A DNA stretch of 64,000 nt. Origin: Dehalococcoidia bacterium. Lineage in GTDB: Bacteria; Chloroflexota; Dehalococcoidia; Bin125. Position numbers and translations under genes: made by a program. Below are positions 2,953-50,230 of the stretch, piece by piece (position 1 is the stretch's first letter; each line of letters opens with the position of its first letter). The stretch spans positions 664,081 through 728,080 of the forward strand of contig OY760135.1 in assembly GCA_963663185.1 (NCBI GenBank), written 5' to 3'. The notes under the pieces were generated by a model. It saw only the letters and a list, made by a program, of their open reading frames with translations, was not told where the DNA came from and searched no databases.

Positions 2953-3004
2953 CGCACGACCCAACGAACGGTCTCGCCCACTTCGGCCGAGAAAGGAATT
3001 GACC

Positions 3005-4219: not shown

Positions 4220-4254
4220 CCGCCGGCGATCCTGTAGTCGGCGACCGGAGCGAC

Positions 4255-4962: not shown

Positions 4963-5067
4963 GCTCGAGTCGCGTGAGAGAGGTGCGGAATCCCGTTCCC
5001 TATGATGGTGAAGAATTTGACCCACGACGGCGCACTCTTGGCGCCGCGCCTGCAGAAGGACTTGACG

Positions 5068-6300
5068 ATGCCGGCTCTTGATGGAATGCGGATCCTGGAT
5101 ATGACCCAGTACGAGGCGGGCACGTCCTGCACGCAGGCGCTGGCCTGGCTCGGCGCTGATGTGGTCAAGGTGGAGCAGCCCGGCGTCGGCGACCCTGGAC
5201 GCGGCGTGCGTACCGGCACGCTCAACTCGCCCTACTTCATCAACTGGAACTCCAACAAGCGGTCGGTCACGATCAACCTCCAGGATCCCAAGGGTCGTGA
5301 ACTCCTGCTGGACATGCTGCCGCACTACGATGTCTTCGTCGAGAATTACGGCCCTGGCGTGATGGAGCGGCTGAATCTCACCTATGAGGTGATGCAGGAA
5401 GTCAATCCGGCCATCATTTATGGCCGTCTCAAGGGTTTCGGTCTCTCGGGTCCATGGGCTGACTACAAGTGTTTCGACATGATCGCGCAGTCTGCGGCGG
5501 GCGCGTTTTCGGTCACTGGCGAGAGCGACGGTCCGCCGATGCTGCCCGGCTCGACCGTCGGCGATTCTGGTACGGGCGTCGAGTTGGCGCTGGCGATCAC
5601 CGCCGCCTACGTCCAGCGACAGCGCACCGGCGAGGGTCAGTTCATCGAGATCACGATGCAGGAGGCGATGACCTACTTTATGCGCACCCGAATCGCATAC
5701 TCCGAGTGGGGTGAGAAGGTCGCGCCGCGCCGCGGCAACTCGGCCGGCGCGCCGACCGATCTCTATCCCTGCAAGTCGACGCCTGAGAGCGAAGCTCGCG
5801 GCGGCAATAATGACTGGGTCTACATCATGGTGGTGACGTCGCGCATGTGGGACACGCTGTGCGCGGCGATCGACCGGCCGGAGCTGTTGGTCGATCCGCG
5901 TTTCGAGGACATGTGGAAACGTAACGAGAACGGCAAAGAGCTGTATGCCGAGATCTCGGAGTGGACGATGCAGCGCACAAAGTGGGAGGCGATGGAGGAG
6001 CTCGGCGCGGTCGGCGTGCCCTGTTCAGCCGTCCTCGACACCTACGACCTGTTCCATAATCCGCACTTCGAAGAGCGTGGCTTTGTACACGATCTCGAAC
6101 ATCCTGCGCATGGCAACATCCGCCTGCTCGGATGGGCGCCGCGGATGTCGAAGAGCGATGTCCCGCTGGTTCGCGCTCCGCTGCTGGGAGAACATACGAC
6201 AGAGGTGCTTTCCGACGACCTCGGCCTTAACGCCGAAGACCTGCAGGAGATGGAGTCAGCCGGAATCATCGGAGGCGAACCCGTCTTCCCCGCGAAGTGA
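5068..6300 (+). CDS. family III CoA-transferase (CaiB/BaiF), paralog 2
   Basis: MPALDGMRILDMTQYEAGTSCTQALAWLGADVVKVEQPGVGDPGRG.. is near-identical in its N-terminus to paralog 1. Confidence 0.8.
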   Translation: MPALDGMRILDMTQYEAGTSCTQALAWLGADVVKVEQPGVGDPGRGVRTGTLNSPYFINWNSNKRSVTINLQDPKGRELLLDMLPHYDVFVENYGPGVMERLNLTYEVMQEVNPAIIYGRLKGFGLSGPWADYKCFDMIAQSAAGAFSVTGESDGPPMLPGSTVGDSGTGVELALAITAAYVQRQRTGEGQFIEITMQEAMTYFMRTRIAYSEWGEKVAPRRGNSAGAPTDLYPCKSTPESEARGGNNDWVYIMVVTSRMWDTLCAAIDRPELLVDPRFEDMWKRNENGKELYAEISEWTMQRTKWEAMEELGAVGVPCSAVLDTYDLFHNPHFEERGFVHDLEHPAHGNIRLLGWAPRMSKSDVPLVRAPLLGEHTTEVLSDDLGLNAEDLQEMESAGIIGGEPVFPAK

Positions 6301-13482: not shown

Positions 13483-14460
13483 TCAATCGAATGCCGGCAG
13501 GACATCGCTGGTGACACGGTCGTACATCGACTGTTGGTCGTAGCCGACCAGGCGCAGCGTGATCGTCGTGGCGCCCGCGTCAATGTAGGACTGGATGTCA
13601 GCGACGCACTGCTCAGGCGTACCCATGGCCACCCAGAGGTTGAGCGCCGCGTCGGTGTAGGTGGTGGTGTAATAGGCCTCGAGATAGCGCCGCGACTCGT
13701 CAAGCGCAGCGTCGCGGTCTTCGTTGACGTTGATGTTGTAATAGACGGCGACCTCAAAGTCGTCGGGCAGGGTACGTCCCAAATCGTCAGCGTGCCCGCG
13801 AATGTCCGCCAGATACGCGGCAACGGTGTCAGGCGGCTGGAAGGTGGTCATCCAACCGTCGCCAAGTCGGGCGACGCGACGCAGTCCGCGACGACGGTTC
13901 GCGGTGTCGTCCGGGCGCGGATTGGATGTGACCCAGATGGGCACGGGGCGCTGAACGGAGCGTGGCTCAATCGTGACATGGTCGAAGTCGTTGTACTCGC
14001 CGTGGTAGGAGACATCGTCTTGCGCGGTCAAGAGACGCAGAATCTCGATTGCTTCTTCCATGCGCGTCATGCGCGAGTTGGGTGTCACGCAGAAGGCCTC
14101 GAACTCGCCAAGCATGTCGCCGCCGCCAGCGGCCGGCTGACCCATGCAGGCAGCGAAGATTGAGCGACCCTGGCTCATGAAGTCGAACGATGCCCATTGA
14201 TAGGCGAGCAGCAACGCGGGCCGAAGCGGCGTCGAGGCGAAGCAGGCAGGGCCGATTCTGACGCGGTCGGTTTGCGCGGCGAGGCCGGCCATCAGTCCGA
14301 GCGCGTCGAGTCTCGGCTTGGCGAGGATGGAATCGCCCACCCAAACCGAATCCCAGCGCTGATCGTCATCGGCGCGTCGGGCGAGAGCGTACATGTCCTC
14401 CAGCGTGGACGCGCCGGTGACGACTCCGCGGTTGGAGAGGGTGAGTCCGAATTTGACCAT
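13483..14460 (-). CDS. LLM-class F420-dependent (luciferase-like) oxidoreductase
   Basis: MVKFGLTLSNRG..; TIM-barrel LLM-family length; ..TITLRLVGYDQQS.. C-terminus. Confidence 0.6.
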   Translation of the reverse strand: MVKFGLTLSNRGVVTGASTLEDMYALARRADDDQRWDSVWVGDSILAKPRLDALGLMAGLAAQTDRVRIGPACFASTPLRPALLLAYQWASFDFMSQGRSIFAACMGQPAAGGGDMLGEFEAFCVTPNSRMTRMEEAIEILRLLTAQDDVSYHGEYNDFDHVTIEPRSVQRPVPIWVTSNPRPDDTANRRRGLRRVARLGDGWMTTFQPPDTVAAYLADIRGHADDLGRTLPDDFEVAVYYNINVNEDRDAALDESRRYLEAYYTTTYTDAALNLWVAMGTPEQCVADIQSYIDAGATTITLRLVGYDQQSMYDRVTSDVLPAFD

Positions 14461-27464: not shown

Positions 27465-28253
27465 CTACTCGCCCTTGAATTCGGGTTGGCGGCCTTGGGC
27501 GAAGGCTCTGGGGCCTTCTTTGGAGTCGGCGGTTTGGCCGACGATCCAGCGCAGGCTACCTCCGAAGCGGTTGGCCTGGGCGAGGGTCATGTCTGCCTGG
27601 GCGATGATCAGTTCTTTCATGGCGCGGACGGCGATTGGGGCGTAGCCGGCGACCTGGCTGGCCATCTCCTGCGCGGTTCCGAGCAGCTCGTCCTGGGGGA
27701 CGAGGCGGGAGATGACGCCCCATTGCAGCGCTTCCTGCATGTTGAGGCGGCGGCCGAGGTAGAGCATCTCGTTGGCGTAGGCCTGAGGGATGGCGCGGGG
27801 CAGGCGCATCGGACCGCCGGCGAGCGGGAAGAAGCCGAGCGTAATCTCCGGGAGGCCGAGGCGGGCGCGGGCGTTTTCGGCGCCGATGCGCATGTCGCAG
27901 ATCAGCGCAATCTCGAAGCCGCCGCCGAGCGCGTGGCCGTTGATCGCTGCGATCAGCGGCTTCTTGGCGTCGAACTCGTCGAAGCGGTCAGCGGCATTGG
28001 TGGGGAAGTGTCCGGCGGGGCCGGCGGAGGCAGCGGGGCCGTCGCCCTGGGTGAGGTCGGCGCCGGCGCAGAAGGCGCGCTCGCCGGCGCCGGTGATCAC
28101 GGCGCTGCGGATGTCGTCGTTGTTGCGTACTTCGATCAGCGCCTCGATCAGACCATCGCCAAGCGCGCGATTGATCGTGTTCATTTTGTCGGGACGGTTG
28201 AGCGTGATCGTGGCCACGCGCTCTGAGACGTCAAACAGGACCTCGTCGGTCAT
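27465..28253 (-). CDS. enoyl-CoA hydratase/isomerase (crotonase superfamily)
   Basis: ..ITLNRPDKMN.., ..GAGERAFCAGADL.. and ..AAINGHALGGGFEIALICDMRIGAE.. Confidence 0.8.
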   Translation of the reverse strand: MTDEVLFDVSERVATITLNRPDKMNTINRALGDGLIEALIEVRNNDDIRSAVITGAGERAFCAGADLTQGDGPAASAGPAGHFPTNAADRFDEFDAKKPLIAAINGHALGGGFEIALICDMRIGAENARARLGLPEITLGFFPLAGGPMRLPRAIPQAYANEMLYLGRRLNMQEALQWGVISRLVPQDELLGTAQEMASQVAGYAPIAVRAMKELIIAQADMTLAQANRFGGSLRWIVGQTADSKEGPRAFAQGRQPEFKGE

Positions 28254-28345
28254 CTCGATACTCCATTCGACTTGTTGAGGACACCAAGATCATAGACACA
28301 GCCTATAATCGCCTCATTCAGCAGCCACTTCAGAGAGGCGGCGGT

Positions 28346-28564
28346 ATGGCGGCAACACCGATCCAAGCGCTTGAGGCGCTTGCCGAATCGCTCGGCGCCG
28401 ACGCGTCGGTTGACGAGCTTGAGCGCGCGCTGCCGATCGTCACGCGCATGCTCAAGAACGCCATCTCTCGAGATCGCTTGCCCGATCTCGGCGAGACCGA
28501 GCCGGCTTTCGGTCTGCGCTTCGATTCGAGCGAACTCAGCAGCGAGCTCAGTACAGGAGAGTAG
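28346..28564 (+). CDS. AtzG/GatC-like small subunit (DUF4089-like)
   Basis: 72 aa, acidic and helical (..LPIVTRMLKNAISRDRLPDLGETEPAF..). It is translationally adjacent to the amidase, as in the AtzE/AtzG arrangement. Confidence 0.35.
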   Translation: MAATPIQALEALAESLGADASVDELERALPIVTRMLKNAISRDRLPDLGETEPAFGLRFDSSELSSELSTGE

Positions 28565-28571
28565 GCGTTTG

Positions 28572-29960
28572 ATGGAAGGTCGTAAACCGTACGAACTGAC
28601 CATAGTGGAGCTCGGCGAGGCGCTGCGCCAGGGCGCGATCACCGCGCTCGATCTCACCGAGTCGGTGCTGGCGCGGCTGGAGGCGACGGAGCCGCTGCTC
28701 AACGCGTACATCACGGTGACGGCTGAGTTGGCGCGCGAGCAGGCGTCGGCGGCGGATGACGCGATGCGGGACGGACGTGACCTGGGTCCGCTGCACGGGA
28801 TTCCGATCGGACTGAAGGATTTGGTCGACACGGCCGGCATTCCTACGACGGGCGGCGGCGGATTCCTGCGTGATCGCGTGCCCGAGGCCGATGCCACGGT
28901 GTACCGCAAACTGAAGGAAGCTGGCGCGGTGATGCCGGGCAAGCTCAATCTGCATGAGTTTGCGTTCGGCACGACGAGCGCCAATCCGCACTACGGTCCG
29001 GTCTGCAATCCGTGGGACGTGACGAAGTCGCCGGGCGGCAGCAGCGGCGGTTCGGGCGCGTCGGTGGCGGTCGGATCGTCGATTGGGGCGCTCGGCTCCG
29101 ACACTGGCGGTAGCATCCGCATTCCCGCCAGTCTCTGCGGCGTCACCGGACTGATGGGGACGTACGGTCGGGTATCGCGCCGCGGTGTTTTGCCGCTCTC
29201 GTGGACGCTTGACCATGTTGGACCGTTGACCAAAACCGTTGAGGAAGCGGGACTCGTCCTCAACGCGATCTCTGGCTACGACCCATCCGATCCCGGCAGC
29301 GCCGATGTCCCGGTCAACGACTGCAATGAGTCGATCGGAGAAGGCGTCGACGGGATTCGGATTGGATTGCCTCGCAAGATGCTCTGGACCGGTTGCGACG
29401 AAGACGTCATTGAACACTGCGAGATCGCGGTGGATCATCTGCGCAGCCTCGGCGCGACGGTGATCGAGGTGGAGCTGCCGTTGCAGACGGACCGTCCTCG
29501 CGGACTGACGATCATCGCCGAGGCGGCGGCCTATCACGCCAAGTGGCTGCGCGAGCGTCGGGACGAATACGGCGACATCCTGGAGCGAGTCGAGGCGGGG
29601 CTCTCCGTTAGCGCAGTGGACTACATCAACGACCAGCGTCTGCGACGGAAGTTCATCGAGGAGACGGCGGCGGTATTGCAGGAGGTGGATGTGCTGATCT
29701 CGCCGACCTGCTCGCGGACCGCGCCGCTGATCGAGGATGGCGATCCGACGGCCGAGCTGGCGCGACTGACTGCTCCGTACGACGTGACCGGGATCCCCGC
29801 GATCTCGATTCCCTGCGGCTATGACCGCAAGGGGATGCCGATCGGCCTGATGATCGGCGGTCGACACTTCGACGAAGCCACCATCTGCCGAGTCGCCCAT
29901 GCCTATGAGCAATCGACGGATTGGGTGTTACAGCGTCCAGATCTCGAGCTGGGGAGCTAG
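28572..29960 (+). CDS. amidase-signature family amidase (GatA/AtzE-like)
   Basis: ..GPLHGIPIGLKDL.., ..GGSSGGSGASVAVG.. (Ser-cisSer-Lys signature), ..DTGGSIRIPA.. Confidence 0.85.
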   Translation: MEGRKPYELTIVELGEALRQGAITALDLTESVLARLEATEPLLNAYITVTAELAREQASAADDAMRDGRDLGPLHGIPIGLKDLVDTAGIPTTGGGGFLRDRVPEADATVYRKLKEAGAVMPGKLNLHEFAFGTTSANPHYGPVCNPWDVTKSPGGSSGGSGASVAVGSSIGALGSDTGGSIRIPASLCGVTGLMGTYGRVSRRGVLPLSWTLDHVGPLTKTVEEAGLVLNAISGYDPSDPGSADVPVNDCNESIGEGVDGIRIGLPRKMLWTGCDEDVIEHCEIAVDHLRSLGATVIEVELPLQTDRPRGLTIIAEAAAYHAKWLRERRDEYGDILERVEAGLSVSAVDYINDQRLRRKFIEETAAVLQEVDVLISPTCSRTAPLIEDGDPTAELARLTAPYDVTGIPAISIPCGYDRKGMPIGLMIGGRHFDEATICRVAHAYEQSTDWVLQRPDLELGS

Positions 29961-37393: not shown

Positions 37394-38293
37394 TTGATGA
37401 CGACTGCAAGCCAACCGATCACCGAATACCGCAGCTGGGCGGTGGAGGAGTTCCGCCTTGAGGAGGAGCCGTACTACGTCCCCGTCGCGGACGAAGTCGA
37501 GATCTTCCAGGCGGCTTGGAACAGCAAGATTCCGGTCTTGTTGAAGGGCCCGACGGGCTGCGGGAAGACGCGGTTCGTCGAGTACATGGCATACCACCTG
37601 AACCGGCCGCTGTCGGTGGTGCGCGATGGTCGGACAGAGATCGAGACTGAGACGAATTTGCCGCTGGTGACCGTGGCGTGCCACGAGGATTTGACGGCGT
37701 CCGACCTGGTTGGTCGCTATCTGCTTGAGGGTAACGAGACGGTCTGGATTGATGGTCCGCTGACGCGCGCGGTCAAGGCGGGCGCGATCTGCTATCTCGA
37801 TGAGGTGGTGGAGGCGCGCAAGGACACGACGGTGTTGATTCACCCGTTGACGGACCACCGCCGGATTTTGCCGATTGAGAAGAAATCGCAGCTGCTGCAG
37901 GCTCGCGACGGTTTCCTGTTGGTGATCTCCTACAACCCGGGTTACCAGTCGGCGCTGAAGGATTTGAAGCAATCGACGCGGCAACGGTTTGTGGCGGTCG
38001 AGTTTGATTACCCGCCGCGCGAGACGGAGGCGGAGATTGTGCGGCATGAGTCGGGTTGCGACGCAGACGTGGCGTTGAACCTGGCGAAGATGGCGGAGAA
38101 GATTCGCAATCTGCGAGAGCACGGCCTGGCCGAGGGTGCGTCGACGCGTCTGTTGATCTACGCCGGTCGGATGATTGCCGAGGGTGTGAGCCCGCGGCGG
38201 GCTTGTCAGGTGGCGATCGTCTGGCCGCTGACGGACGACGGCGAGGTTCAGCGGTCGATCGAGGAAGTGGTTTCCTCGATCTTTGAGGAATAG
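37394..38293 (+). CDS. MoxR-class AAA+ ATPase of the CbbQ/NirQ/NorQ/GvpN family
   Basis: ..[19 protein letters not shown].. (Walker A), ..[10 protein letters not shown].. (Walker B); CbbQ-like length of 299 aa. Confidence 0.8.
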
Positions 38294-38305
38294 CACGGAA
38301 TCGCT

Positions 38306-38878
38306 GTGCGGATTGGCATCGTATCGGACATTCACTGCAATGCGGCGGCGTTGGACCGCGCCGTGGAGCAGATGGGTGACGTAGACGAGATTCTCTGCGC
38401 GGGCGACGCCTGTTACCAGTACCGGTTCTCGAACGAGGTGGCGGAGCGGCTGCGCCAGCTCGGCGGTCGCTACGTGTTGGGGAACCATGAGGAGATTCTG
38501 CTGTCGGAGGCGGGCGCGCGGGCGCAGGCGTCGCCGACGGTGGATCATGCACTGCTGGAATGGACGCGAGATCAGCCGCAGTTGCTGCGCACGGAGATCG
38601 ACGGGAAGCGTCTGCTGATGTTTCACGCGACGCCGTGGGCGCCGTACAAGGATTATCTGTTTCCGCACGATCCGCAGCTGCAACGGTTGGCGGAGGAAGA
38701 GGCCGACTTCATCATCTATGGGCATACGCATGCGCCGTTGGTGACGCGAATCGGTCGAGCGCTGATCGTGAATCCGGGTTCTGCGGGGGAGATGCGGGGC
38801 GCGGAGCAGGTGCTGACTTATGCTGTGTTAGACACGGCTGACGATCACGCAGAGATCGAACAGATCCGATTTGACTGA
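38306..38878 (+). CDS. metallophosphoesterase (YfcE/MJ0936-like)
   Basis: MRIGIVSDIHCN.. (D-x-H), ..GDACYQY.., ..GNHE.., ..GHTH.. are calcineurin-like motifs. Confidence 0.8.
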   Translation: MRIGIVSDIHCNAAALDRAVEQMGDVDEILCAGDACYQYRFSNEVAERLRQLGGRYVLGNHEEILLSEAGARAQASPTVDHALLEWTRDQPQLLRTEIDGKRLLMFHATPWAPYKDYLFPHDPQLQRLAEEEADFIIYGHTHAPLVTRIGRALIVNPGSAGEMRGAEQVLTYAVLDTADDHAEIEQIRFD

Positions 38879-41800
38879 TTCCGAGCGCAACAACGGCGAC
38901 CGTTGGCTGAGAGCCGAGGGATTGCCGGTTGGGAAGACGCCCATGACCGACCAGACCAACTCCGCCACATTGACCGAAGACGCGCGCGAACAGTTACGCC
39001 AGTTTCCACCGGCGTTGAGCCAGGACTTTGAGGCGGCGCTCGCCGCCGTGAGCGAGGTTCTGGAGCCGGACGAGCTAGGGTCGTGGCTGAACGATGGTCT
39101 GGACATTGCGCGGCATTCGCTGCGCAGTTGGGAGGCGGCGGCCGAGTACTTCCGCGCCTCAGGGCCGGTGTTGGAACAGATCACATACGACCGCATGCGT
39201 GAGTGGTGCGCGGTGGGGATCGAGCTGATGGACACGTCGCCGGCGTTGTCTGGGGCGATGTTCCGCGCCTCGCCGTCGGTGTTGCCGCATCTGTCGGTAG
39301 CGCAGGCGAGCGATTGGGCGGGGCAAGGCAAGTCGCTGTACAAGGGGACGTGGAAGTCAGGATCGCTGTCGGCGCAGTACTTCGATGTGGCGCCGCAGAT
39401 TTTGCCGCATCTGCCGCTGTCGCAGATGCGCCTGTTGGTGGATCTGATTGACTCGCTGGCGTCGCACTCGTACGAGCTGGCGTCTGCCTGTCTGGGGATG
39501 GCGCCTGGCGTGTTGTCGCAGTTGGATCGCGGTGATCGGGCGCCATTCCTTGAGTTTGGCGGGATTGTGGCGCATACGGCGTGGGTGGACGCGCGGGTCT
39601 ACTTCGAGCGTGGGCCGGGCGCGTTGCGGCAGGTGTCGGAGGAGCAGCGTCCGCGCTATCTGTCGCTGTCCGGTCAGGTGGCGATGCAGGTGGGTCGACT
39701 TGGGCATCCATACTTTATTGAGGCCGCGCAAGCGTTGGCGGAGGTGGACAAGGAGATTCACGAGGGGTTGCTGGAGCTGTCTGAGCAGTTGGCGCCGCAT
39801 TCGGGCGACGCGGCGATGGAGTTTCTGAAGTCGTCGCCGCAGGTAGCGGAACGCCTGGGGATTGACGACATCGCTCGCTGGCAGGAGTTCGGACTTGGCA
39901 TCCTGCAACAGTCGCGCGACGGCGGCGAGGCGTTTTTCCGACTCGAGTCGGCGCGCGGCGAAGAGGTGATGGAGGCGCTGAGCAGTCGTGTGGATCTGGA
40001 TCGCGTTTCGGAGCTGATTCGGATGTATTGCAAGGCGCTCACGGGCGTGGATGTGGGTGTGAAGGCGTCGGAAGAGCTGACGGCGAAGGGTGTGGGTTGG
40101 GTGGACGAAAGCAGTCCGACGACGGAGGGGACGACGATCTATCTGCCGGAGAATGTCGAGCGATACCAAACGAAGGACGAGAATTTCGCGGTCTACAAGG
40201 TGTTCGCGACGCATCAGGCTGGGCGGCTGGAGTTCGGCTCGTTTAACTACGAGTCGGCGACTGATTCCGAGCTGTTCCCGCAGCCGTCGAATGGTGCGCA
40301 GAACGGCCACGGTCATGGTCGGGGCGCAAGTGTGGCGGCGGTGGTCCAACAGGACGCGGAGAGTGGCGAGATTCACACGGACATGGAGCGATTCTTCGAT
40401 CAGTTCGAGGATCGAAAGCTGGCGCACGATCTGTTTACGATCGTGGAGGACACGCGCATCGACACGATCGTGAAGCGTGAGTACGCCGGGGTGCGTCGCG
40501 CGTTCACGCGGCTACAGCAGTCAGCGGCGGAGCGACGTCGCCCGGTGGAAGATATGCCGGCGAGACAGGCGATGGTGGAGAATTTACTGCGGGCGTCACT
40601 GGATGAGGTGGGCCGGATCCGTTGGCCGCAGGAGCTATCTGAGGAGTTGCGGACGCCGCTGCGGATTCTGAATCGGATCCGCGAGGACGGCGCGACGGTG
40701 CAGGACACGGCAGCGGCGACGGCGTTGCTGTATGAGTGGTTGTCGAATGTGCCGAATGTGGAGCTGGAGTCGGAAGATTGGTCGGATATTGAGCAAGAGA
40801 TGAGCGGCGATCCGGATGCGGGCGAGGATGGCGACATGATGCCGGGTTCGGGTTCTTCTGGCCTGGAAGAATCGTTCATGCCCTTCATGCCGGGTTCGGA
40901 GGAGCGACCCTACGACAGCCCGGACCCTGTGGATTTCCGCGGCGACTTCAAGCCAGAGTTGGTGCAGTTGCTGATGAAGTTGAAAGGCGAGATCGGTTCG
41001 GGCGACGCTCCGCCGATTCCGCTGACGAAGGAGCAGTTGCAGGAGCTGTTGGAGAAGTCAGTTGAGATTTCGATCAACGAGCTGATGGACATGGACTTGG
41101 CGGAGTCGTCGGGCATGTTCCTGGACAACCTGTTGAAGGAAGTCAATCAGATTCAGGGAGAGCGGCAAGAGGGTCAGCAGGCGATGGGTGACGACTCGAC
41201 CGGGGCGGAAGATGATGGGGAGTTGCCGGTTGAGGCGCAGTCGTTCTACTACGACGAGTGGGATTTCCGGGCGGCGGACTACAAGCCGCGCTGGTGTCGG
41301 GTGCAGGAGCAGCGCGGTGAGTTGGGCACGACGGGGTACTACACGGAGACGTTGCACGAGCACACGCAGCTGGTCAAGGAGACGCGCAAGCAGTTTGAGA
41401 TGCTGCGACCGGAGATGTTCCGCAAGATGAAGCGTTTGACGGACGGTGAAGATTACGATCTCGACGCGGTGATCGAGTGGTACACGGAGAAGATTGCCGG
41501 CGCCACGTCGGAGACGAAGCTGTTCTACCGACGGAACAAGGTGGAACGTGATGTGGCGGTGGCGTTCTTGTTGGATGTTTCCGCCTCGACGGATGAGGAG
41601 ATCCAGAAGCATCACGATCAGCGGCAGGACGATCAGTTTGACGATGATCCGCGCAAGTACCTGTCCTGGTGGGCGCAGCGTCGGGCTGAGGCGGCGCGTC
41701 ATCCGGGTAAGCGGATTATTGACCTGGAGAAGGAAGCGGTGGTCCTGCTGATCGAGGCGCTGGAGACGATCGGGGATAAGTACGGCGTCTACGGATTCTC

Positions 41801-42236
41801 TGGCTACGGACGGGACAATGTGGAGTTCTTCGTCTACAAGGACATGGATGAGCCGTTTGGCGATCGGATCAAGGAGCGGATCGACAAGATTGCCCCGGTC
41901 CGCTCGACGCGGATGGGGCCGGCCATCCGCCACTGTATCTGGAAGCTGCAGAACACGGATGCCAAAGTGAAGATCCTGATGCTGTTGTCGGACGGTCGGC
42001 CGCAGGATCACGGATACGGTCGCGACCGCACGGAGAAGGAATACGCGATTCACGACACGAAGATGGCGTTGACGGAGGCGCGTCGTGAGGGCATGGTTCC
42101 GTTCGCGCTGACGGTGGACCGGGCGGGGCATGACTACCTGAAGCAGATGTGTCAGGACATGGCGTACGAAGTGGTGGCGGACATTGAGTCCTTGCCGCGG
42201 CGCCTGCCGGCGCTGTATCGCCGTTTGACTGGCTAG
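38871..42236 (+). CDS. large VWA-domain protein, CbbO/NorD-like partner of the CbbQ-type ATPase
   Basis: The C-terminal about 350 aa form a VWA domain with a MIDAS motif (..VAFLLDVSASTDEE.., ..LMLLSDGRPQD.., ..TVDRAGHDYL..). The N-terminal about 750 aa are an unrecognised helical/acidic region. Total 1121 aa from the ORF start; the true start may be a few codons in. Confidence 0.65.
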   Translation: MTDSERNNGDRWLRAEGLPVGKTPMTDQTNSATLTEDAREQLRQFPPALSQDFEAALAAVSEVLEPDELGSWLNDGLDIARHSLRSWEAAAEYFRASGPVLEQITYDRMREWCAVGIELMDTSPALSGAMFRASPSVLPHLSVAQASDWAGQGKSLYKGTWKSGSLSAQYFDVAPQILPHLPLSQMRLLVDLIDSLASHSYELASACLGMAPGVLSQLDRGDRAPFLEFGGIVAHTAWVDARVYFERGPGALRQVSEEQRPRYLSLSGQVAMQVGRLGHPYFIEAAQALAEVDKEIHEGLLELSEQLAPHSGDAAMEFLKSSPQVAERLGIDDIARWQEFGLGILQQSRDGGEAFFRLESARGEEVMEALSSRVDLDRVSELIRMYCKALTGVDVGVKASEELTAKGVGWVDESSPTTEGTTIYLPENVERYQTKDENFAVYKVFATHQAGRLEFGSFNYESATDSELFPQPSNGAQNGHGHGRGASVAAVVQQDAESGEIHTDMERFFDQFEDRKLAHDLFTIVEDTRIDTIVKREYAGVRRAFTRLQQSAAERRRPVEDMPARQAMVENLLRASLDEVGRIRWPQELSEELRTPLRILNRIREDGATVQDTAAATALLYEWLSNVPNVELESEDWSDIEQEMSGDPDAGEDGDMMPGSGSSGLEESFMPFMPGSEERPYDSPDPVDFRGDFKPELVQLLMKLKGEIGSGDAPPIPLTKEQLQELLEKSVEISINELMDMDLAESSGMFLDNLLKEVNQIQGERQEGQQAMGDDSTGAEDDGELPVEAQSFYYDEWDFRAADYKPRWCRVQEQRGELGTTGYYTETLHEHTQLVKETRKQFEMLRPEMFRKMKRLTDGEDYDLDAVIEWYTEKIAGATSETKLFYRRNKVERDVAVAFLLDVSASTDEEIQKHHDQRQDDQFDDDPRKYLSWWAQRRAEAARHPGKRIIDLEKEAVVLLIEALETIGDKYGVYGFSGYGRDNVEFFVYKDMDEPFGDRIKERIDKIAPVRSTRMGPAIRHCIWKLQNTDAKVKILMLLSDGRPQDHGYGRDRTEKEYAIHDTKMALTEARREGMVPFALTVDRAGHDYLKQMCQDMAYEVVADIESLPRRLPALYRRLTG

Positions 42237-42250
42237 GTAGCGTTATCGCT

Positions 42251-42598
42251 ATGGGTGCGATCGCCGGGAGCTTGACGGTTGGCGGGATTTCAGCTGCCTT
42301 TGCGGCGACGCTGATTGGTCAGGATTCGACGCCGCTGTACATCGTCTGCGTGTCGGTGGCTGGCGCGGGCTTGTTGCTGATGCTGTTGCATGTGGCGCGG
42401 CAGCGAGGCGACACGTCGGCGCCGTGGTACGCCTTGGCTCCGATGGCGATCGTGGTGGCCCTGTTGGGAATTGCGGCGTCGGGAGCGACGTGCGGTGTTG
42501 CCTGCATCGCCTGGGGCACGCCGGCCGCAGCCGCCACGCTGGCTGTTCCCGATCTGCGAGGTTGGCTAAGTCGGAAGCGTCCGTTGCGAGAGCTGTAG
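42251..42598 (+). CDS. small hypothetical membrane protein (3 predicted TM)
   Basis: Hydrophobic 115-aa ORF immediately after the VWA gene. Confidence 0.4.
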   Translation: MGAIAGSLTVGGISAAFAATLIGQDSTPLYIVCVSVAGAGLLLMLLHVARQRGDTSAPWYALAPMAIVVALLGIAASGATCGVACIAWGTPAAAATLAVPDLRGWLSRKRPLREL

Positions 42599-42615
42599 TT
42601 CGCTAATCTATATCT

Positions 42616-43245
42616 ATGGTGATGTTCGACAGACTTCCGATGCGCGATGTGTTGGTGGGCCGACTCGGTTGGTCGGAGGAGGACGCGCGGGCTTTCCTCG
42701 AGGTGATGGAGTCGCCGACTGAGCATCTCGCCACGCGAGATGACGTTGCCGCGGTGCGCTCAGATCTCGATCAGGCCAGAGAAGACATCGTGCGTCTGAA
42801 GGCGGATGTGGCGCAGTTGAAGATGGATGTCGCAGAGCTGAAGGCGGATGTGGCGCAGTTGAAGACGGATGTCGCAGAGCTGAAGGCGGATGTGGCGCAG
42901 TTGAAGACGGATGTCGTAGAGCTGAAGGCGGATGTGGCGCAGTTGAAGATGGATGTCGCAGAGCTGAAGACGGATGTCGTAGAGATTCGGTCAGATGTCA
43001 GACGGTTGGATGAGAAGGTTGAGTACTTGCGAGTATCGCAAATGGAGATGGAAGAGCGCCTCATTCGATACATCGACAGCAAAATGGCGGATTTGGAGAG
43101 AACGATGGCTGCGGAACGGGAGGCCAGCGAAGCGAGATTCATGGCTGCGCTGCGGGACAGCGAAAGAAGAATGCTGATGCTGGTGTCCAGCGTGGGGTTC
43201 GGCACGATTGGGATCGGAATCGCGATCCTGGTCCGAGTCCTCTGA
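42616..43245 (+). CDS. DUF1640-like coiled-coil protein with C-terminal TM anchor and expanded 8-aa/16-aa repeats
   Basis: ..LKADVAQLKMDVAELKADVAQLKTDVAELKADVAQLKTDVVELKADVAQLKMDVAELKTDVVE.. then ..LVSSVGFGTIGIGIAILVRVL. The DNA shows about four 48-bp tandem units at ~42790-42990. Confidence 0.5.
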   Translation: MVMFDRLPMRDVLVGRLGWSEEDARAFLEVMESPTEHLATRDDVAAVRSDLDQAREDIVRLKADVAQLKMDVAELKADVAQLKTDVAELKADVAQLKTDVVELKADVAQLKMDVAELKTDVVEIRSDVRRLDEKVEYLRVSQMEMEERLIRYIDSKMADLERTMAAEREASEARFMAALRDSERRMLMLVSSVGFGTIGIGIAILVRVL

Positions 43246-43269: not shown

Positions 43270-46200
43270 TCAGTTTGTGAGGCGCAGTTCGCGGTTGAGT
43301 TCGAGGCGCAGGAACCAGCGCCAGGTCGCCAGGACACCGATGACGAGGACGCCGGCGAGGACGCCGAAGGCGATACCGAGGATCTGCCAGTCGGTCTCGA
43401 TCTGGAAAGGTGGTAGCACCGTTCGGCCCTTTTCATCGATCTCGAGATAAGCGAGCAGCAGTAGCGAGATGCGGTTGCCGAGCAACACACCGAGCACGAG
43501 ACCGGTACCGACGATGATGGCGTACTCGAGGGCAATTTGGATGAGGATGCTGAGGTTACCGACACCAACGGTTCGAAGTAGCGCCATCTCGAGCCGCCGT
43601 TGGCGGGCGGAAACGGCCATTGAGACAAGGAAGGCGAGCGCAAGAAGCAGCGAGATGGCGATGAAGGCGACGAGCAGGATTCCCGATCCGCCAGCTGTGG
43701 TGAGCGGGTCACGCCCGCTCTGTTCTAGCTGCTCGATCTGATCGTTGAAGCGACCGAGCGAGTATCGGGGACGATTGAGTTCCCACTTGATCGCCTCACG
43801 GGCCTCAGGATCATCGACGAGGTCGAGCCAAGCCTCGGTGGGCATGATGGATGGTCGCAGCGTGGTGACCGAGCCCAGGTGATAGAGCGCGTCGTAGTCG
43901 GCGACGATGAATGGCAGTTCGTCGGGGCGCAGGGTGGGGAACAGGTCAATGATCGACATGATGCGCGCCGAGACCACGAACTGATCGAGGCGTAGCGTGT
44001 AGCGATCGCCCACTTCCAGCAGCTGGCGCTCGGCGAAGCTGGCGCTGACGATGGTGGGCAGTGTGCAGCGCGTATTGGAGCAGAACGACGGGTCGGCGAA
44101 GTGAGCGGCGCGTAAGCCGGGCGACTGCCCGATGCTGGGATAGAAGGCCATCACGTGTTCGCCGGAGACCGGATCGTCTGCTTGCTCGAAGGCAACCTCA
44201 TCGCCGGAGCCGCGACGCTGTACGTAAGACAGCCAGCCGCGATGCTCGAAGTCTTCGATGATCAGTTCGCGACCATCGGGTTGGACAGCGGTGACGGCAT
44301 CGAAGAAGATCGTCGCTGGTTCGGAGGCGAAGAGTCCGTAGGGTTCGCTCATGACGATGCTGTGCAGGGTGTAGGGGCTGGCGGTGCTGGAGCCAACGAT
44401 TTCGCGTTGGAAATCAATCTCGACGGCGGTCCAGGGCGACTCTGGGCGAGGCATGTCGAGTCCGCCAGCGGTGTGGTATCGGCCGTCGCCGTCTCGGATG
44501 CGGAACCAGAGTGATTGGTCGGACTCGCCCAGACCGAGTCGTACCCAGAAGCGGAGGGTTTCGGTCTCTGGCGGGATGCTGATGCCGCGTCCGACGGGCG
44601 GCACGTCGATGCTGGCGATCAGGTCTTCGAAGGTCATCAGCGAGAGGTCTTCGCGAAACCACATCATGTCGAGCGCGGCGCGCGGTTCGAGGCCGAGGAT
44701 GTTGACGCTGGCAGCGGTGCCGACGCTGCGGCCGGCGGAGACCTTGGATCGGTGGACGGCGGAGACGGCGTCAACGCCCTCGAGCGGGCCGAGTCGGTTG
44801 CGGACGCCGTTGGCGGACGAATAGCCGCTCTCGCCGAGTCCGACGCGGAACTCGACGCCGGTGTCGTACTCGATGCGTTCTTCCAGGGAACGTTCGATGG
44901 TGTCGGCGTAGGAGGCGGCAAAGGTGCCGAGCGCGGCGCCGAGCATGAGCAGGATGGTGAGCCGCGCGGCAGGTCCGACGGTGCGGCTCACGTATCGCAA
45001 CGTGGAGGCGATGGAGAGCGGGAAGCGGTCGTAGGTCAGCCAGGCGAAGAGTCGGTAGATATAGGGCAGGAAGCGGAGGATGACCAGTGTGGCTGCGAGC
45101 GCGAAGAGGATCGGGGTGCTGAGCAGGAGCGGGTCGGCGGCCAGTCCGCCGACGCTGTTGCGCTCGAAGACGGTGCCTTTGAGATCGGCTTCGAAGATCA
45201 GGCCGACAGCGACGAGGACGAGGGCGATGTCGAGGTAGTAGCGCTGCAGGGCGTTGGGACCGCTGGGTCGGGCGATGCTGCGCAGGCGCTCGGAGAGGAC
45301 ACGGGTGCGACTGGCGACCACAAGCGGCGCCAGTGTGAAGAGGACCGCAACGATGGCGCCAGCGGCGGAGAGCAGGAACGCCATGTCGGTGAGCGTGGTG
45401 GGGATCGTGGCGCCGCCGGTCAGCGGTTCGAAGACGGGCGTATATCCGAGCAGTCCGATGATGCCGATGGCGATGAAGGGCGCCACGGCCGCAGCGACGA
45501 TCGCGAGCAGGATGCCTTCAATCGCCGTGTGCGAGACGACCTGCATGATCGAAGCGCCGCGGGAGCGCATCGAGAAGAGCTCTTCGCGTCGTTGGGCGAC
45601 CTGGACCCCGGAGACGATGACGACGTAGAAGAGGGCGATGCCGACCACTTGGGCGAGCAGCATGAGGATCGGGACCTGGGTGAAGCTGAGGTCCTTGACG
45701 AAGGTCTCGAGGCGAGGTTCGATCGGCGATCTGACGCCGCCGCTGATTGAACGCAGGTCTTCGCGGAGCAAGTCGAAGGATGCTCTGGTCTGATCGAGGA
45801 CGGCAACGTTGAGTTGGTCCGTGTCGATCTCGGAGATCCAGGTGGTATTGACGAGGTAGCCGCTCATCACCTGAGGGAGTTCGAGGTCGAAGGCCTGGGA
45901 CGCGACGATCAGTGGGATGACCTGAGCTCGCGAACTGCTGATGTAGACCGGGCCGGTGATGTTGTCGGGGACGCGAGCCCAGAATGCCTCTGCTGCTTCG
46001 CTCTCGGCGGGTTCGACGAACCCGGTGACGACGACCGGTATGAGGCGCTGAACCAGCATGGTCGGTTCGCAGGGCGGTCGAGGCGGCGGCGGCGGCCCAC
46101 CGGGCGGTGGATCGGGTTCGCGGTCGCACTCGTCGAAGCCGTCGATCAGTTCCCAATTGCTGCCGACCTGGATGCCGTAGCCGGACGCGGCGCGAACTGG

Positions 46201-46695
46201 TAGTGCGACTTCGATCGGGCCGCTGAGCGCGCCGTCGGCGGTGAGGACGGGAGGATTCGGGAATCGTCCTTCGACCATGCTGAGATGCGGCTCGGCTTGA
46301 TCGAGGGACGCGAGAAAGGCGGTTGGGTTGATGACCTGACCGCGACGCAGGCCGACATTGATCTGCGTCGGGACGGTGGCGCGGAAGCGCAGGCGTTGGG
46401 ACTCGAGATCGCCGAAGCGTTGGCTGATTGAGTCTTCGGCGTATTCGCGCGCGGAGTCGTTGGGTCCGCCGGCGAGCGGGATGTTGTTGAGCGAGCTGAA
46501 CATCTGCCGGCGATCGGTGAGGTCTTCACGCAAGCTGACGGTGAGCGAGAGGTCGGAGACGGCTCTGGTGTAGATCGTGGTGGACGCCATCAAGACGGCG
46601 GCGACCAGGATGCCAGCGGCGATCACGAGCTGGAGTCTCCAGCTGTCGCGCATACGACGTAAGACAAAGCCGAGTATCGCGCCGACTGACTCCAC
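43270..46695 (-). CDS. FtsX-family permease, giant two-FtsX-domain type (1141 aa)
   Basis: Repeated 4-TM FtsX modules with large extracytoplasmic loops; proline tract ..EPDPPPGGPPPPPRPPCEP..; MacB/DevC-like topology. Confidence 0.65.
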   Translation of the reverse strand: MESVGAILGFVLRRMRDSWRLQLVIAAGILVAAVLMASTTIYTRAVSDLSLTVSLREDLTDRRQMFSSLNNIPLAGGPNDSAREYAEDSISQRFGDLESQRLRFRATVPTQINVGLRRGQVINPTAFLASLDQAEPHLSMVEGRFPNPPVLTADGALSGPIEVALPVRAASGYGIQVGSNWELIDGFDECDREPDPPPGGPPPPPRPPCEPTMLVQRLIPVVVTGFVEPAESEAAEAFWARVPDNITGPVYISSSRAQVIPLIVASQAFDLELPQVMSGYLVNTTWISEIDTDQLNVAVLDQTRASFDLLREDLRSISGGVRSPIEPRLETFVKDLSFTQVPILMLLAQVVGIALFYVVIVSGVQVAQRREELFSMRSRGASIMQVVSHTAIEGILLAIVAAAVAPFIAIGIIGLLGYTPVFEPLTGGATIPTTLTDMAFLLSAAGAIVAVLFTLAPLVVASRTRVLSERLRSIARPSGPNALQRYYLDIALVLVAVGLIFEADLKGTVFERNSVGGLAADPLLLSTPILFALAATLVILRFLPYIYRLFAWLTYDRFPLSIASTLRYVSRTVGPAARLTILLMLGAALGTFAASYADTIERSLEERIEYDTGVEFRVGLGESGYSSANGVRNRLGPLEGVDAVSAVHRSKVSAGRSVGTAASVNILGLEPRAALDMMWFREDLSLMTFEDLIASIDVPPVGRGISIPPETETLRFWVRLGLGESDQSLWFRIRDGDGRYHTAGGLDMPRPESPWTAVEIDFQREIVGSSTASPYTLHSIVMSEPYGLFASEPATIFFDAVTAVQPDGRELIIEDFEHRGWLSYVQRRGSGDEVAFEQADDPVSGEHVMAFYPSIGQSPGLRAAHFADPSFCSNTRCTLPTIVSASFAERQLLEVGDRYTLRLDQFVVSARIMSIIDLFPTLRPDELPFIVADYDALYHLGSVTTLRPSIMPTEAWLDLVDDPEAREAIKWELNRPRYSLGRFNDQIEQLEQSGRDPLTTAGGSGILLVAFIAISLLLALAFLVSMAVSARQRRLEMALLRTVGVGNLSILIQIALEYAIIVGTGLVLGVLLGNRISLLLLAYLEIDEKGRTVLPPFQIETDWQILGIAFGVLAGVLVIGVLATWRWFLRLELNRELRLTN

Positions 46696-46828
46696 CCGCG
46701 CCCCCGTTGTCTGAACATCATCCGCCGAAGCTCGGCGGCGATGTTGAATTTCGATACTGCTAGTAGTCTACGAACAACCTTCGGTCTGACATACCTTGAA
46801 CGCGTCAGCGGCTGGGGGACGAGGCAGT

Positions 46829-49800
46829 ATGGGCGGACTGTTCAGCTCTATTCCGACGGCGTTTCGGATTGCGGTGCGGCGCTTGAACGGCAACCGTCGA
46901 CTGATGGCGGCGGTTGCGGTCGGCGTGATTCTGGCCGTGGCGTTGATGGCGTCAACGTCGATCTATCGCAACACGCTGCAGGATCTGGGCTTGCAAACGG
47001 ATCTGAAGCGGGTGTCGGATCAGGATCTGGATGTGCGGGTCCTGAATGCCGCGCACGGGCTCTCGGGCGGGCAGGCGGAGGAGTCGTTTGCGACGATTGA
47101 TCGCCGTCTGCGGATTCCGCGCGAGTACATCTCGGATACGACCCATTCGCTGACATCGGCGACGTTCTTCATGACCGAGGTCGGGGATACACCGCCCGAT
47201 GAGGACCCACGCGACCGGGCGCGGGTGTTGTGGTTTGAAGGCGTACGTGAGCATGTTGAGGTGGTGGAAGGTCGTTGGCCGACGGCGGCGCCCGCGGCGA
47301 CGCCTGAGGATGCGCCGGTGATTGAAGTCGCGATGGGCGTGGAGGCGGCCGCGTCGGGCGGGTATGAGTTGGGGGAAACGCGCGATATCCATGCGTCATG
47401 GCGGGATGACGCCGGCCCGATCCAGCTGCTGGTGGTAGGGCTGATCCGACCGATCGATTACACGGAGCGTTACTGGGGAGTTCGGCGCGACCACTTCCAG
47501 GTGCCGGTGGAGAAGACGGACGCGTTCGCGTTCTTTGCGCCGCAAGAGACGCTGTTGGCTTCGATGGCGGGCTTCATGCCGGAGCTGCGCGGTCGACTTG
47601 AGGTGACGGCACAAGTCGATCGGGCTGCGTTCGTGGCGGATGATGCGGGGATCGCGGCATTGCGCTTCCGCGGCGCGTTTGAGGCGATTTCGAAGGAGAT
47701 CGATCGGGCGCGGATCGAGTCCGAGATCGTGAACGTACTGAACGACTTTGAGACGAAGGATTTCTTCTCCTCGATTCCGCTGCTGGTGCTGACGCTGCAG
47801 ATCGTAGGAATTGTGCTGTTCTATCTGGTGTTGGTGTCGACGATGGTGGTGGAGCGGCAATCGGCGGAGGTGGCGCTGTTGAAGTCGCGCGGGGCGGGGT
47901 TGGGACACATTATGTCGATTTCAACGATTGAGGGGTTGTTGCTGGTGGCGCTGGCGCTGGGATTGGGGCCGCTGGTCGCGCGCGAGGCGATTGCGTGGCT
48001 GGGATACTCGCCGGCGTTCGAGGGTTTGACGGGCGGCGCGCGCCTGAGTGTGGCGTTGGATGCCGAGGTATACATCTGGGCGGCGATTGGCGCGGTGCTG
48101 AGCTTTGTCGCGTTGCTCTGGCCGGCCTGGAGATCGAATCGCGCGACAGTGGTGGCGTTCGCTCGCTCGACATCGCGACCGCAGGACCGACCGGCGTTTC
48201 AGCGCTATTACCTGGACCTGGTGGTTGTGGGCGTTGGCGCGCTGCTGTTCTTCCAACTGCAGGAGTCTGGCTCTCTGGTGACGGAGGATCTGTTTGGCGG
48301 GTTGCAGCAGGATCCGTTGCTGTTGATCGCGCCGGCTGTGTTCGTGGTGACGGTAGCGGTGTTGTTCTTGCGTCTGTTTCCGCTGTTGTTGTCGGGAGTT
48401 TCGGCGATATCCCGACTGCTGGGCGGAGCGTCGATGCAGATGGTGCTGTGGCACCTGACTCGGGCCCCGGTGCAGCCGGGGCGGCTCGCCTTGCTGCTGA
48501 TCATGGCGACGTCGCTGGGCATGTTCGGCGGTACGTTCGGCGCGACATTGGACAAGTCGTTTGACGATCGGGCAGCGTATCAGTCGGGGGCGGCGCTGCG
48601 GCTTGGGGATTTGCGCAGTAGCGGTTCGTCCGTCTCGATGTTGGAGGCTGACCTGGCAGATGCGCCGGGGATTGGCGACGCGTCGTACGTGATTCGCGCC
48701 AATGCGTCGTTCTCGCGCGGCGCGCTCGACGTGACGGATGCGACGATTCTGGGCATTGAACCAGAGTCGTTTGTAGATGTGTTGTGGTTCCGAGAAGACT
48801 TTGCCTCAGAAGACGCGCGCGCGTTGGTGTCGCTGGCGACAGGTCCGGCGTTCGAGGTGGAGGAGATCGTGGTGCCGGCCGACGCGACCTACGTCGGGAT
48901 GTGGTTCTGGTTGCCGGAGACGAGCGGCGCGATCGCGCCGAATCTTCGCCTGGTGGACTCGTCCGGCCGTTTTCGCGATGTGGCGTTGCTCGGCTTGCCC
49001 CGCGGTCGCGGGTTCGGGATTGGTACGGATCATGCGGAGGGTTGGCGGTTTCTGTTTGGTGATCTGAGAAAGGGCGCCGGATCGCCGCACATTGGGCCGT
49101 GGACATTGCAGGGCGTCAATGTGCGTACGGCGGGCACGACCAACTTCTCGGGCACGGTCGGTTATGACGCGATTCAGTACACCAAAGAATCGACGCTGCC
49201 GGAGGACATTCTTGAGGCGGGTTTTGATGAGGGCGTGATCATTGAGAGCTTTGAAGAGCAGGGGCGTTGGACGGTCCTGACTGACACGACACGCGACGGT
49301 CCGTTGCCAGATGACGCGCGGTTGACATCCGCGCAGGCGTATGACGGCGAAGCGGGCATGCGATATGTCTGGAATCGCACGGTACGCAGCGGGATTCCGC
49401 GCGGGATTCGGCTGGTGGGACCGGATGATCCCTTGCCGGTCGTGGTGAGCAATACGTTCCTGCGAGAAGCATCGCTGGATATGGGGTCGACGATTTTGCT
49501 GGGCACATCAAGCGTGTATGTGCCGGCTCGGGTGGTCGGGAGCTTCGATCTGTTCCCAACCTGGGATCCGGAAGAGCCGCGCTCACTGATTCTGGCGAAT
49601 CGTGACTATCTGTACTACCGGGTGAATCGGAATCCGACGACGGTGGGCGCGCTGTCGCCGAACGAGGTCTGGATTCAGCCGACGGATGAGGATGGTCTGC
49701 GACAGCTGCGCACGTGGTTGGAGGTGGAGTCGCCCTGGAAGCATGATGCGTACGATGTCGACGCGATCCGCAATCTGCAGGACGAGGATCCGTTGGTGGC

Positions 49801-50230
49801 GGCCGGCTGGGAGGGACTGCTGTTCCTGACGTTCATTGCGATCGTGTTGCTGGCGGCGCTGGGCTTCTTGGTGGCGTCGGTGTTGGTGGCGCAACAGCAG
49901 CAGGGAGAGTTTGCGGTGCTGCGGACGTTGGGCTTCTCGCTGCCGCAGGTGCTGTTGATTGTGGGCGTGGAGAAATTGCTGATCATCGCGGTGTCGATGG
50001 GCTTGGGCACGGTGGTGGGCTTGCAGCTGGGGACGATGATGCTGGAGTTTGTCGGCTTCGTCGAGACGGGCGAGACGTTGCTGCCGCCATTCGTGACGGT
50101 GACGGATTGGGCGACGATCGGCGGGGCCTACGGCGTGCTGGGTATGGTGTTCCTGGGAGCGATCGGGATCATTGTGGCGCTGTACATGCGGATGGCGATC
50201 GGGCAGATTCTACGGATCGGCGCGGATTGA
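46829..50230 (+). CDS. FtsX-family permease, giant two-FtsX-domain type (about 1133 aa), divergent paralog
   Basis: Same architecture and alignable blocks (..LLKSRGAG..IMS.STIEG..) as the divergent neighbour. Confidence 0.65.
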   Translation: MGGLFSSIPTAFRIAVRRLNGNRRLMAAVAVGVILAVALMASTSIYRNTLQDLGLQTDLKRVSDQDLDVRVLNAAHGLSGGQAEESFATIDRRLRIPREYISDTTHSLTSATFFMTEVGDTPPDEDPRDRARVLWFEGVREHVEVVEGRWPTAAPAATPEDAPVIEVAMGVEAAASGGYELGETRDIHASWRDDAGPIQLLVVGLIRPIDYTERYWGVRRDHFQVPVEKTDAFAFFAPQETLLASMAGFMPELRGRLEVTAQVDRAAFVADDAGIAALRFRGAFEAISKEIDRARIESEIVNVLNDFETKDFFSSIPLLVLTLQIVGIVLFYLVLVSTMVVERQSAEVALLKSRGAGLGHIMSISTIEGLLLVALALGLGPLVAREAIAWLGYSPAFEGLTGGARLSVALDAEVYIWAAIGAVLSFVALLWPAWRSNRATVVAFARSTSRPQDRPAFQRYYLDLVVVGVGALLFFQLQESGSLVTEDLFGGLQQDPLLLIAPAVFVVTVAVLFLRLFPLLLSGVSAISRLLGGASMQMVLWHLTRAPVQPGRLALLLIMATSLGMFGGTFGATLDKSFDDRAAYQSGAALRLGDLRSSGSSVSMLEADLADAPGIGDASYVIRANASFSRGALDVTDATILGIEPESFVDVLWFREDFASEDARALVSLATGPAFEVEEIVVPADATYVGMWFWLPETSGAIAPNLRLVDSSGRFRDVALLGLPRGRGFGIGTDHAEGWRFLFGDLRKGAGSPHIGPWTLQGVNVRTAGTTNFSGTVGYDAIQYTKESTLPEDILEAGFDEGVIIESFEEQGRWTVLTDTTRDGPLPDDARLTSAQAYDGEAGMRYVWNRTVRSGIPRGIRLVGPDDPLPVVVSNTFLREASLDMGSTILLGTSSVYVPARVVGSFDLFPTWDPEEPRSLILANRDYLYYRVNRNPTTVGALSPNEVWIQPTDEDGLRQLRTWLEVESPWKHDAYDVDAIRNLQDEDPLVAAGWEGLLFLTFIAIVLLAALGFLVASVLVAQQQQGEFAVLRTLGFSLPQVLLIVGVEKLLIIAVSMGLGTVVGLQLGTMMLEFVGFVETGETLLPPFVTVTDWATIGGAYGVLGMVFLGAIGIIVALYMRMAIGQILRIGAD

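Follow-up and report, generated by a model that had tools for sequence, protein, structure and literature searches.

Introduction

Type VII ATP-binding cassette (ABC) systems, the MacB/FtsX superfamily, perform mechanical work at the cell envelope, including the extraction of lipoproteins, the control of wall hydrolases, the expulsion of toxins and antibiotics and the hydrolysis of lipids. Structures of fused members with 10 transmembrane (TM) helices have been solved only recently. Here we analyzed a window of 64,000 nt (the whole stretch under study, positions 664,081 to 728,080 of contig OY760135.1 from a Dehalococcoidia bacterium, assembly GCA_963663185.1), which contains two divergent genes, hereafter A and B, for giant paralogous permeases of this superfamily with no ABC ATPase gene beside them. 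We consider it most likely, with a probability of roughly 0.7, that A and B form part of an ordinary mechanotransmission ABC system and that its ATPases are supplied in trans from elsewhere in the genome.

The described system closest in architecture is the YbbAP-TesA complex of E. coli, in which YbbP shows the same topology as the proteins analyzed here, with coupling helices between TM2 and TM3 and between TM8 and TM9, and binds two copies of YbbA (PMC12646458). Like YbbP (PDB 9GE6/9GE7), protein A has 10 TM helices in the order 4+2+4 and large outer domains between TM1 and TM2 and between TM7 and TM8. YbbP is, however, considerably shorter (~800 aa vs ~1140 aa here) and has neither the beta-sandwich insert nor the cysteine-bracketed proline loop found in A. 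In addition, its ATPase gene ybbA is adjacent, the ATPase forms a homodimer and the hydrolase TesA serves as partner, whereas here two paralogous permeases occur together and relatives encode two different ATPases. The similarity to YbbP went undetected in a phmmer search against PDB sequences (only LolC appeared, E 0.12), and a partial scan of the neighboring genes in the window revealed no TesA-like (SGNH) thioesterase. Because sequence similarity is undetectable, no ATPase or TesA-like gene is adjacent and the outer domains are larger, A and B are YbbP-like in architecture but not YbbP orthologues.

MacB and LolCDE share with A and B the FtsX 4-TM fold, the Porter/Sabre-type outer domain and the mechanotransmission logic, but they are dimers of 4-TM subunits instead of one fused chain, MacB carries a fused ATPase, and neither MacA/TolC nor LolA, their respective partners, has a detectable counterpart in the window. 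A is not a member of the NCBIfam families LolC/E (TIGR02212, 23.2 bits vs a cut-off of 362) or cell-division FtsX (NF038346, 17.4 bits vs 250). BceB of the BceAB(-S) systems is likewise a fused FtsX permease with 10 TM helices and binds two ATPase subunits; it differs in its size of ~640 aa, its single large outer domain (TM7-8, whereas A has two) and its coupling to BceRS, and no ATPase, histidine kinase or response regulator of the BceAB/BceRS kind was present among the window genes scanned. A duplicated FtsX permease without an adjacent ATPase has been described before, namely the acidobacterial duplicated orphan permeases (ADOP, TIGR03434; PMC3914696). ADOP is the best NCBIfam match of A, a weak one that leaves A outside the family (35.2 bits vs a cut-off of 622.3), and its members differ in being ~800 aa long and forming large paralogue arrays in Acidobacteria and some Bacteroidota.

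Results

Two intact double-FtsX permeases in more than 70 kb without an ABC ATPase gene

Gene A is located on the minus strand (43270..46695) and encodes 1141 aa from a GTG start, a length backed by homologues of 1139 aa at 100% query coverage. Gene B is located on the plus strand (46829..50230) and encodes 1133 aa from an ATG. Its longest open reading frame (ORF) starts with a TTG (46796-50230, plus strand, 1144 aa); the ATG at 46829 aligns across the members of the clade to which the window belongs, as seen in an alignment of the spacer. The initial annotation, which had described two paralogous FtsX-family proteins of about 1140 aa transcribed divergently from a 133-bp shared intergenic region (46696-46828), agrees well with these data, the spacer length holding with the ATG start of B. 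Both proteins exceed the gathering cut-off of the Pfam family FtsX (PF02687, 25.5 bits), A with 53.3 bits and B with 32.1 bits, in two stretches each, and they align as colinear full-length paralogues with 28% identity (E 2e-98). A 2.69-Mb ENA contig (ERZ21861943 contig_1) matches the window at 99% identity, and a protein 99% identical to A (P0001) is carried on two contigs, L001 and L002. Decay of A and B into pseudogenes was ruled out, as the ORFs are intact in about 50 loci with a mean pairwise identity of 0.71-0.74.

According to hydropathy and an AlphaFold2 model, A has 10 TM helices in the order 4+2+4, made up of two 4-TM FtsX modules and two linking helices, and B shares this architecture. 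Of the earlier description as two 4-TM modules with very large extracytoplasmic domains, the modules and the domains are therefore retained, while the total of 2×4 helices falls short by the linking pair. The outer domains of A comprise ~275 residues between TM1 and TM2 (residues ~60-335) and ~390 residues between TM7 and TM8 (residues ~613-1000), and each 4-TM module thus bears a Porter/Sabre-type extracytoplasmic domain between its first two helices, as in FtsX and MacB. The mean predicted local distance difference test score (pLDDT) of the model is 74, with 80-93 in the outer domains. In a Foldseek search of the model against the PDB the top match was E. coli YbbP (9ge6_A, E 5.7e-17), covering the whole chain over ~1156 columns, followed by MacB, BceB, LolC/E, YtrF and HrtB.

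No gene combining a Walker A motif with an LSGGQ signature was found in a motif scan of all six frames of the window. One LSGGQ match at 47060 falls within outer domain 1 of B by chance and was rejected as an ABC signature. Clear P-loop genes are limited to those for a CoaE-type kinase and a MoxR AAA+ protein, and with two bona fide partner ATPases of a relative as queries phmmer gave no match in the window at E<1e-5. An ABC ATPase gene is also absent from the 10 kb past the right end and from the ~1.4 kb past the left end, altogether more than 70 kb. The observation that no nucleotide-binding-domain gene lies next to the pair hence extends well beyond its immediate flanks.

In related lineages B is directly followed by a pair of ATPase genes

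A word-index search with A yielded 84 homologues, almost all from Chloroflexota or Dehalococcoidia and, again with few exceptions, unnamed or annotated just as Chloroflexota FtsX-like or ABC permeases. A HMMER scan of 1.84 billion cluster representatives (clusters at 50% identity) returned 663 proteins at E<=1e-30, most of them 1100-1150 aa in length. As far as we could tell, the A/B family is thus large and uncharacterized. A genome scan with an alignment of 10 sequences gave 79 loci, all of them in metagenome-assembled genomes (MAGs) of Dehalococcoidia or other Chloroflexota; ORFs were called in all loci and searched with two query sets, taken from the window and from one distant locus.

About 50 species-level loci form the clade of the window, with 60-99% identity to A and both genes intact in every locus. 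Their gene order is MoxR, phosphoesterase, VWA protein, 115-aa membrane protein, (coiled-coil protein), A | B, MFS, IlvD, and none of them has an ABC ATPase gene within 10 kb on either side of A|B (about 23 kb were inspected per genome). Other Dehalococcoidia clades contribute 16 loci (31-38% identity) in which two ABC ATPase genes come directly after B, first ATP1 (~300 aa) and then ATP2 (~260 aa). These Chloroflexota loci (e.g. L003, L055-L066, L084) carry true orthologues of A and B with equal architecture; they differ from the window in the ATPase genes directly after B and, usually, in two small genes for beta-rich proteins after A. Two layouts were observed: A, two small genes and then B-ATP1-ATP2, or a head-to-head A|B arrangement as in the window. 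Gene A was never part of the ATPase transcription unit in any lineage sampled and stands alone in several, so that service in trans is normal for the family. A neighbor-joining tree of 119 A/B-type proteins places the B proteins of the window clade among the ATPase-linked B proteins, as sister to L084 and the L003/L055-L062 group. Linkage is therefore ancestral, and the unlinked state of the window clade is derived and, in this sample, unique to that clade, as judged from the protein sequences.

ATP1 and ATP2 are of the MacB/LolD type and have an intact Walker A motif, the signature LSGGEQQR and a Walker B motif with the catalytic Glu. ATP1 is further distinguished by a VGFVWQQ motif and, at its C-terminus, a weak AbrB/MraZ-like domain. 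With an ATP1 profile, 80 loci spanning a GC content of 0.39-0.74 were found in a metagenome scan. An FtsX-like giant permease ends beside ATP1 in 54-55 of the 60 loci with usable upstream DNA, and of the 62 loci whose downstream DNA is usable, 60 have ATP2 after ATP1; in 8 loci two tandem giants precede the ATPases. In Anaerolineae/Ardenticatenales the two ATPases are fused into one protein of ~560 aa with the AbrB/MraZ-like domain between the ABC domains (P0085 and ~100 similar proteins), which argues that ATP1 and ATP2 would work as a heterodimer on one permease. At one locus (L128, 7568-10873) a 1100-codon open frame ends with the ATP1 match; permease and ATPase may be fused here, or the frame may just happen to be open upstream.

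The coupling helices are conserved in the clade without linked ATPases

In YbbP the cytoplasmic loops TM2-TM3 and TM8-TM9 contain the coupling helices, and the position of the first segment in A was set by analogy with that protein (PMC12646458). In A the segments are located at 45541..45600 (minus strand, residues ~366-385, TM2-TM3 loop, containing RREELFSMRSRGAS) and 43549..43611 (minus strand, residues ~1029-1049, TM8-TM9, containing RRLEMALLRTVGVG), with mean pairwise identities within the window clade of 0.86 and 0.87. The corresponding segments of B are VERQSAEVALLKSRGAGLGH (47849..47908, plus strand, residues 341-360) and AQQQQGEFAVLRTLGFSLPQ (49886..49948, plus strand, residues 1020-1040), with 0.91 and 0.92; between the unlinked and the ATPase-linked clades they still reach 0.68 and 0.61, respectively, and are among the best conserved blocks of B. 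By comparison, the whole proteins have mean identities of 0.71 (A) and 0.74 (B) within the window clade. At 0.86-0.92 the four coupling segments are thus level with the TM helices, whereas the outer domains range from 0.56 to 0.69. A block of 20 residues in A (1021-1040) reaches 0.98 within the clade. A motif E..[LM][LM][RK][ST].G is matched in three of the four modules, with the near-variant EELFSMRSRGA in the fourth; coupling segment 2 of A carries it in the form E..[LM]LR[ST].G. The proteins thus have the cytoplasmic coupling helices characteristic of FtsX/MacB permeases, which are predicted to contact the ATPases.

Outer domains and intergenic spacer

Outer domain 2 of A, of the Porter/Sabre type, holds an all-beta insert of ~170 residues (~700-870; 44086..44598, minus strand) with a jelly-roll or beta-sandwich fold, which hints at a glycan or lipid ligand, no more. 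The initial annotation had further pointed out a linker in A. The stretch in question, the proline-rich PPPGGPPPPPRPP (46072..46110, minus strand, residues 196-208), is present but does not link the modules: it is located inside outer domain 1, bracketed by Cys190 and Cys209, two residues that do not vary in 10 homologues with identities as low as 33%. In the AlphaFold2 model it is unstructured and of low confidence (pLDDT ~56), and it is probably a surface loop closed by a disulfide. A has only four cysteines in total, the other two, Cys872 and Cys877, being nearly invariant and located in outer domain 2. B has no cysteine and lacks the PPPGGPPPPPRPP loop.

The 133-bp spacer between A and B is variable across the window clade except for one invariant block of 13 nt, CGTAGACTACTAG (46760..46772, minus strand), which contains GTAG-A-CTAC and lies 65 nt upstream of the start codon of A. 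This element is unique in the 64-kb window. The degenerate pattern CGTAGRCTACWRG has a single match, in this spacer and with the same orientation, in each of 47 loci of the window clade and none in the 115 other fetched loci. From this distribution we regard CGTAGACTACTAG as a clade-specific candidate promoter or operator element; a scan for consensus sigma-70 sites found no convincing promoter in the spacer.

Neighboring genes and other features of the window

Convergent to A lies an operon on the plus strand (37394-42598) for a MoxR/CbbQ-type AAA+ ATPase (AAA_5 and CbbQ_C domains), a YfcE-type metallophosphoesterase, a protein of 1121 aa whose VWA domain is C-terminal and whose N-terminal part of 950 residues has no match, and the 115-aa membrane protein. 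It is followed by a gene for a tail-anchored coiled-coil protein (42616-43245, plus strand, 209 aa by the longest ORF) with 14-residue repeats LKADVAQLKTDVAE, which contains a tandem repeat at 42796-42977 (42-nt unit, 4.3 copies, 96% matches). On the two contigs that carry P0001 this gene encodes 174 aa (L001) or is split into 142 and 40 aa (L002), so that the repeat number seems to vary.

Further upstream, a 932-aa ORF without Pfam match (19106-21904, minus strand) is located in the stretch with the lowest GC content (0.565 at 18-20 kb vs ~0.63 elsewhere in the window), possibly acquired DNA. GC skew is positive on the plus strand from 12 kb and amounts to ~+0.2 in most bins from ~30 kb, regardless of gene direction; this steadily rising cumulative skew suggests that the window belongs to a single replichore and that strand asymmetry in this genome is unusually strong. 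Genes for three family-III coenzyme A-transferases, two enoyl-coenzyme A hydratases, an amidase and a luciferase-like monooxygenase were found at 2882-6300, 21974-24037, 27465-29960 and 13483-14460, and a HigB-like toxin gene was called in a matching contig (L165). The catabolic gene content fits a versatile marine or sponge-associated Dehalococcoidia, where the link to sponges is our presumption from the MAG name prefixes (RHO, IRC, COS, SB).

In clades other than that of the window, the two small convergent genes after A were found in more than 20 loci (for example, all on the minus strand, 13395-14311 in L003, 13484-14874 in L072 and 13386-15320 in L069). Their products are N-terminally membrane-anchored, beta-rich and without Pfam match, and they may be accessory, adaptor-like subunits. 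In the window the slot after A is occupied by the unrelated 115-aa membrane protein and the tail-anchored coiled-coil protein.

Discussion

The initial annotation reasoned that permeases of this type need an ATPase partner, which leaves two options, a partner gene at another place or a different mode of action for these proteins. The first of these is favored by the ATPase-linked orthologous loci, by the fact that A is never co-transcribed with the ATPases and by the conserved coupling helices, while the partner itself was not located. According to our preferred explanation, A and B would be paralogous permease subunits of a type VII ABC system with a fused, YbbP-like build, each polypeptide representing an internal pseudo-dimer of TM1-4, two linking helices and TM7-10. 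Each permease would dock a pair of MacB/LolD-type nucleotide-binding subunits, at a predicted ratio of one permease to two ATPases, and ATP-driven movements of this pair would be passed to the permease outer domains. The system would thereby perform mechanical work at the external face of the membrane, where it would extract or expel a compound associated with the envelope or drive a partner outside the cell, and would not act as a pore for a solute. In the related lineages the motor would be the ATP1/ATP2 heterodimer encoded directly after B; in the clade of the window these genes would have become detached from the locus and, as orthologues of ATP1/ATP2 or as another MacB-type ATPase elsewhere in the genome, would serve the permeases in trans.

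Several results weigh against an ATPase pair encoded elsewhere. A partner ATPase was identified in the fetched sequence of no member of the window clade, and a tblastn search for remnants of the ATPases or of the small proteins in 1.13 Mb of clade DNA found none, its sole match being a generic ABC ATPase with 35% identity in L025. None of the 120 best matches listed in a search with the ATP1 profile comes from a window-clade chromosome; these matches are fused ATP1-ATP2 proteins and near relatives of the queries, and a search with the AbrB-like C-terminal domain of ATP1 alone gave just short fragments. The metagenome scan contained no orphan ATP1-ATP2 pair, essentially all copies adjoining a B-type permease. 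The small membrane-anchored beta-rich proteins of the other clades are absent from the window clade, and conservation of the coupling helices would be expected as well from a structural role independent of an ATPase.

These points invite the thought that the dedicated ATPases have been lost from the genome and that A and B work without ATP hydrolysis, as scaffolds, receptors or anchors for extracellular partners. The clade of about 50 species would then have discarded the ATP1/ATP2 motor and kept both permeases under purifying selection, either in an ATP-independent function or with another source of energy. It is indeed the only sampled lineage in which B occurs without ATP1-ATP2, it has neither a remnant nor a relocated copy in the fetched sequence, the accessory small proteins are gone as well, and its own conserved intergenic element suggests rewired regulation. 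Against this stand the coupling helices and the motif E..LLR[ST].G (three of four modules), which are conserved like the TM helices, and the just ~23 kb per genome that these absences cover. We know of no FtsX-family protein that acts without an ATPase and regard loss of the motor as very unlikely. Another solution would be a borrowed motor, in which A and B use a non-orthologous MacB/LolD/FtsE-type ATPase of another FtsX-type system, a sharing also assumed for ADOP. Orphan duplicated FtsX permeases are known from that family (TIGR03434; PMC3914696), and gene A relies in every lineage on ATPases from another transcription unit; the tight pairing of B with ATP1-ATP2 in relatives (54-55 of 60 loci) speaks for a dedicated partner instead, and the VGFVWQQ motif and AbrB/MraZ-like domain of ATP1 suggest a co-evolved interface, which makes borrowing unlikely.

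The motor could also be sought next door, in the MoxR AAA+ ATPase/VWA operon and its neighbor (37394-43245), whose products would take the place of the ABC motor or add to it. Gene order up to A is conserved in most loci of the window clade, but shared gene order among such close relatives is weak evidence. The operon is convergent with A and hence not co-transcribed with it, and it is missing beside A in three clade members (L042, L047, L050) as well as in every ATPase-linked clade. MoxR-VWA pairs are soluble chaperone-like systems. On account of its orientation and its absence from part of the clade, we consider a functional partnership with this operon extremely improbable.

We thus return to an ordinary mechanotransmission system with its ATPases in trans as the best explanation for the A/B locus. 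The family described here comprises YbbP-like permeases of ~1,100 residues that occur as A/B pairs. One outer domain carries an additional beta-sandwich, and most lineages use two ATPases, either as a heterodimer or fused. The clade of the window represents a natural experiment in which the ATPase genes were removed from an otherwise very stable operon, and the fate of these genes, moved or gone, would show to what extent an FtsX permease depends on a dedicated motor. The likely case is that its genes just lie elsewhere, and the finding would then amount to an ordinary operon rearrangement. A true loss of the motor would be remarkable, as A and B would then be the first FtsX-fold proteins that work without an ABC ATPase.

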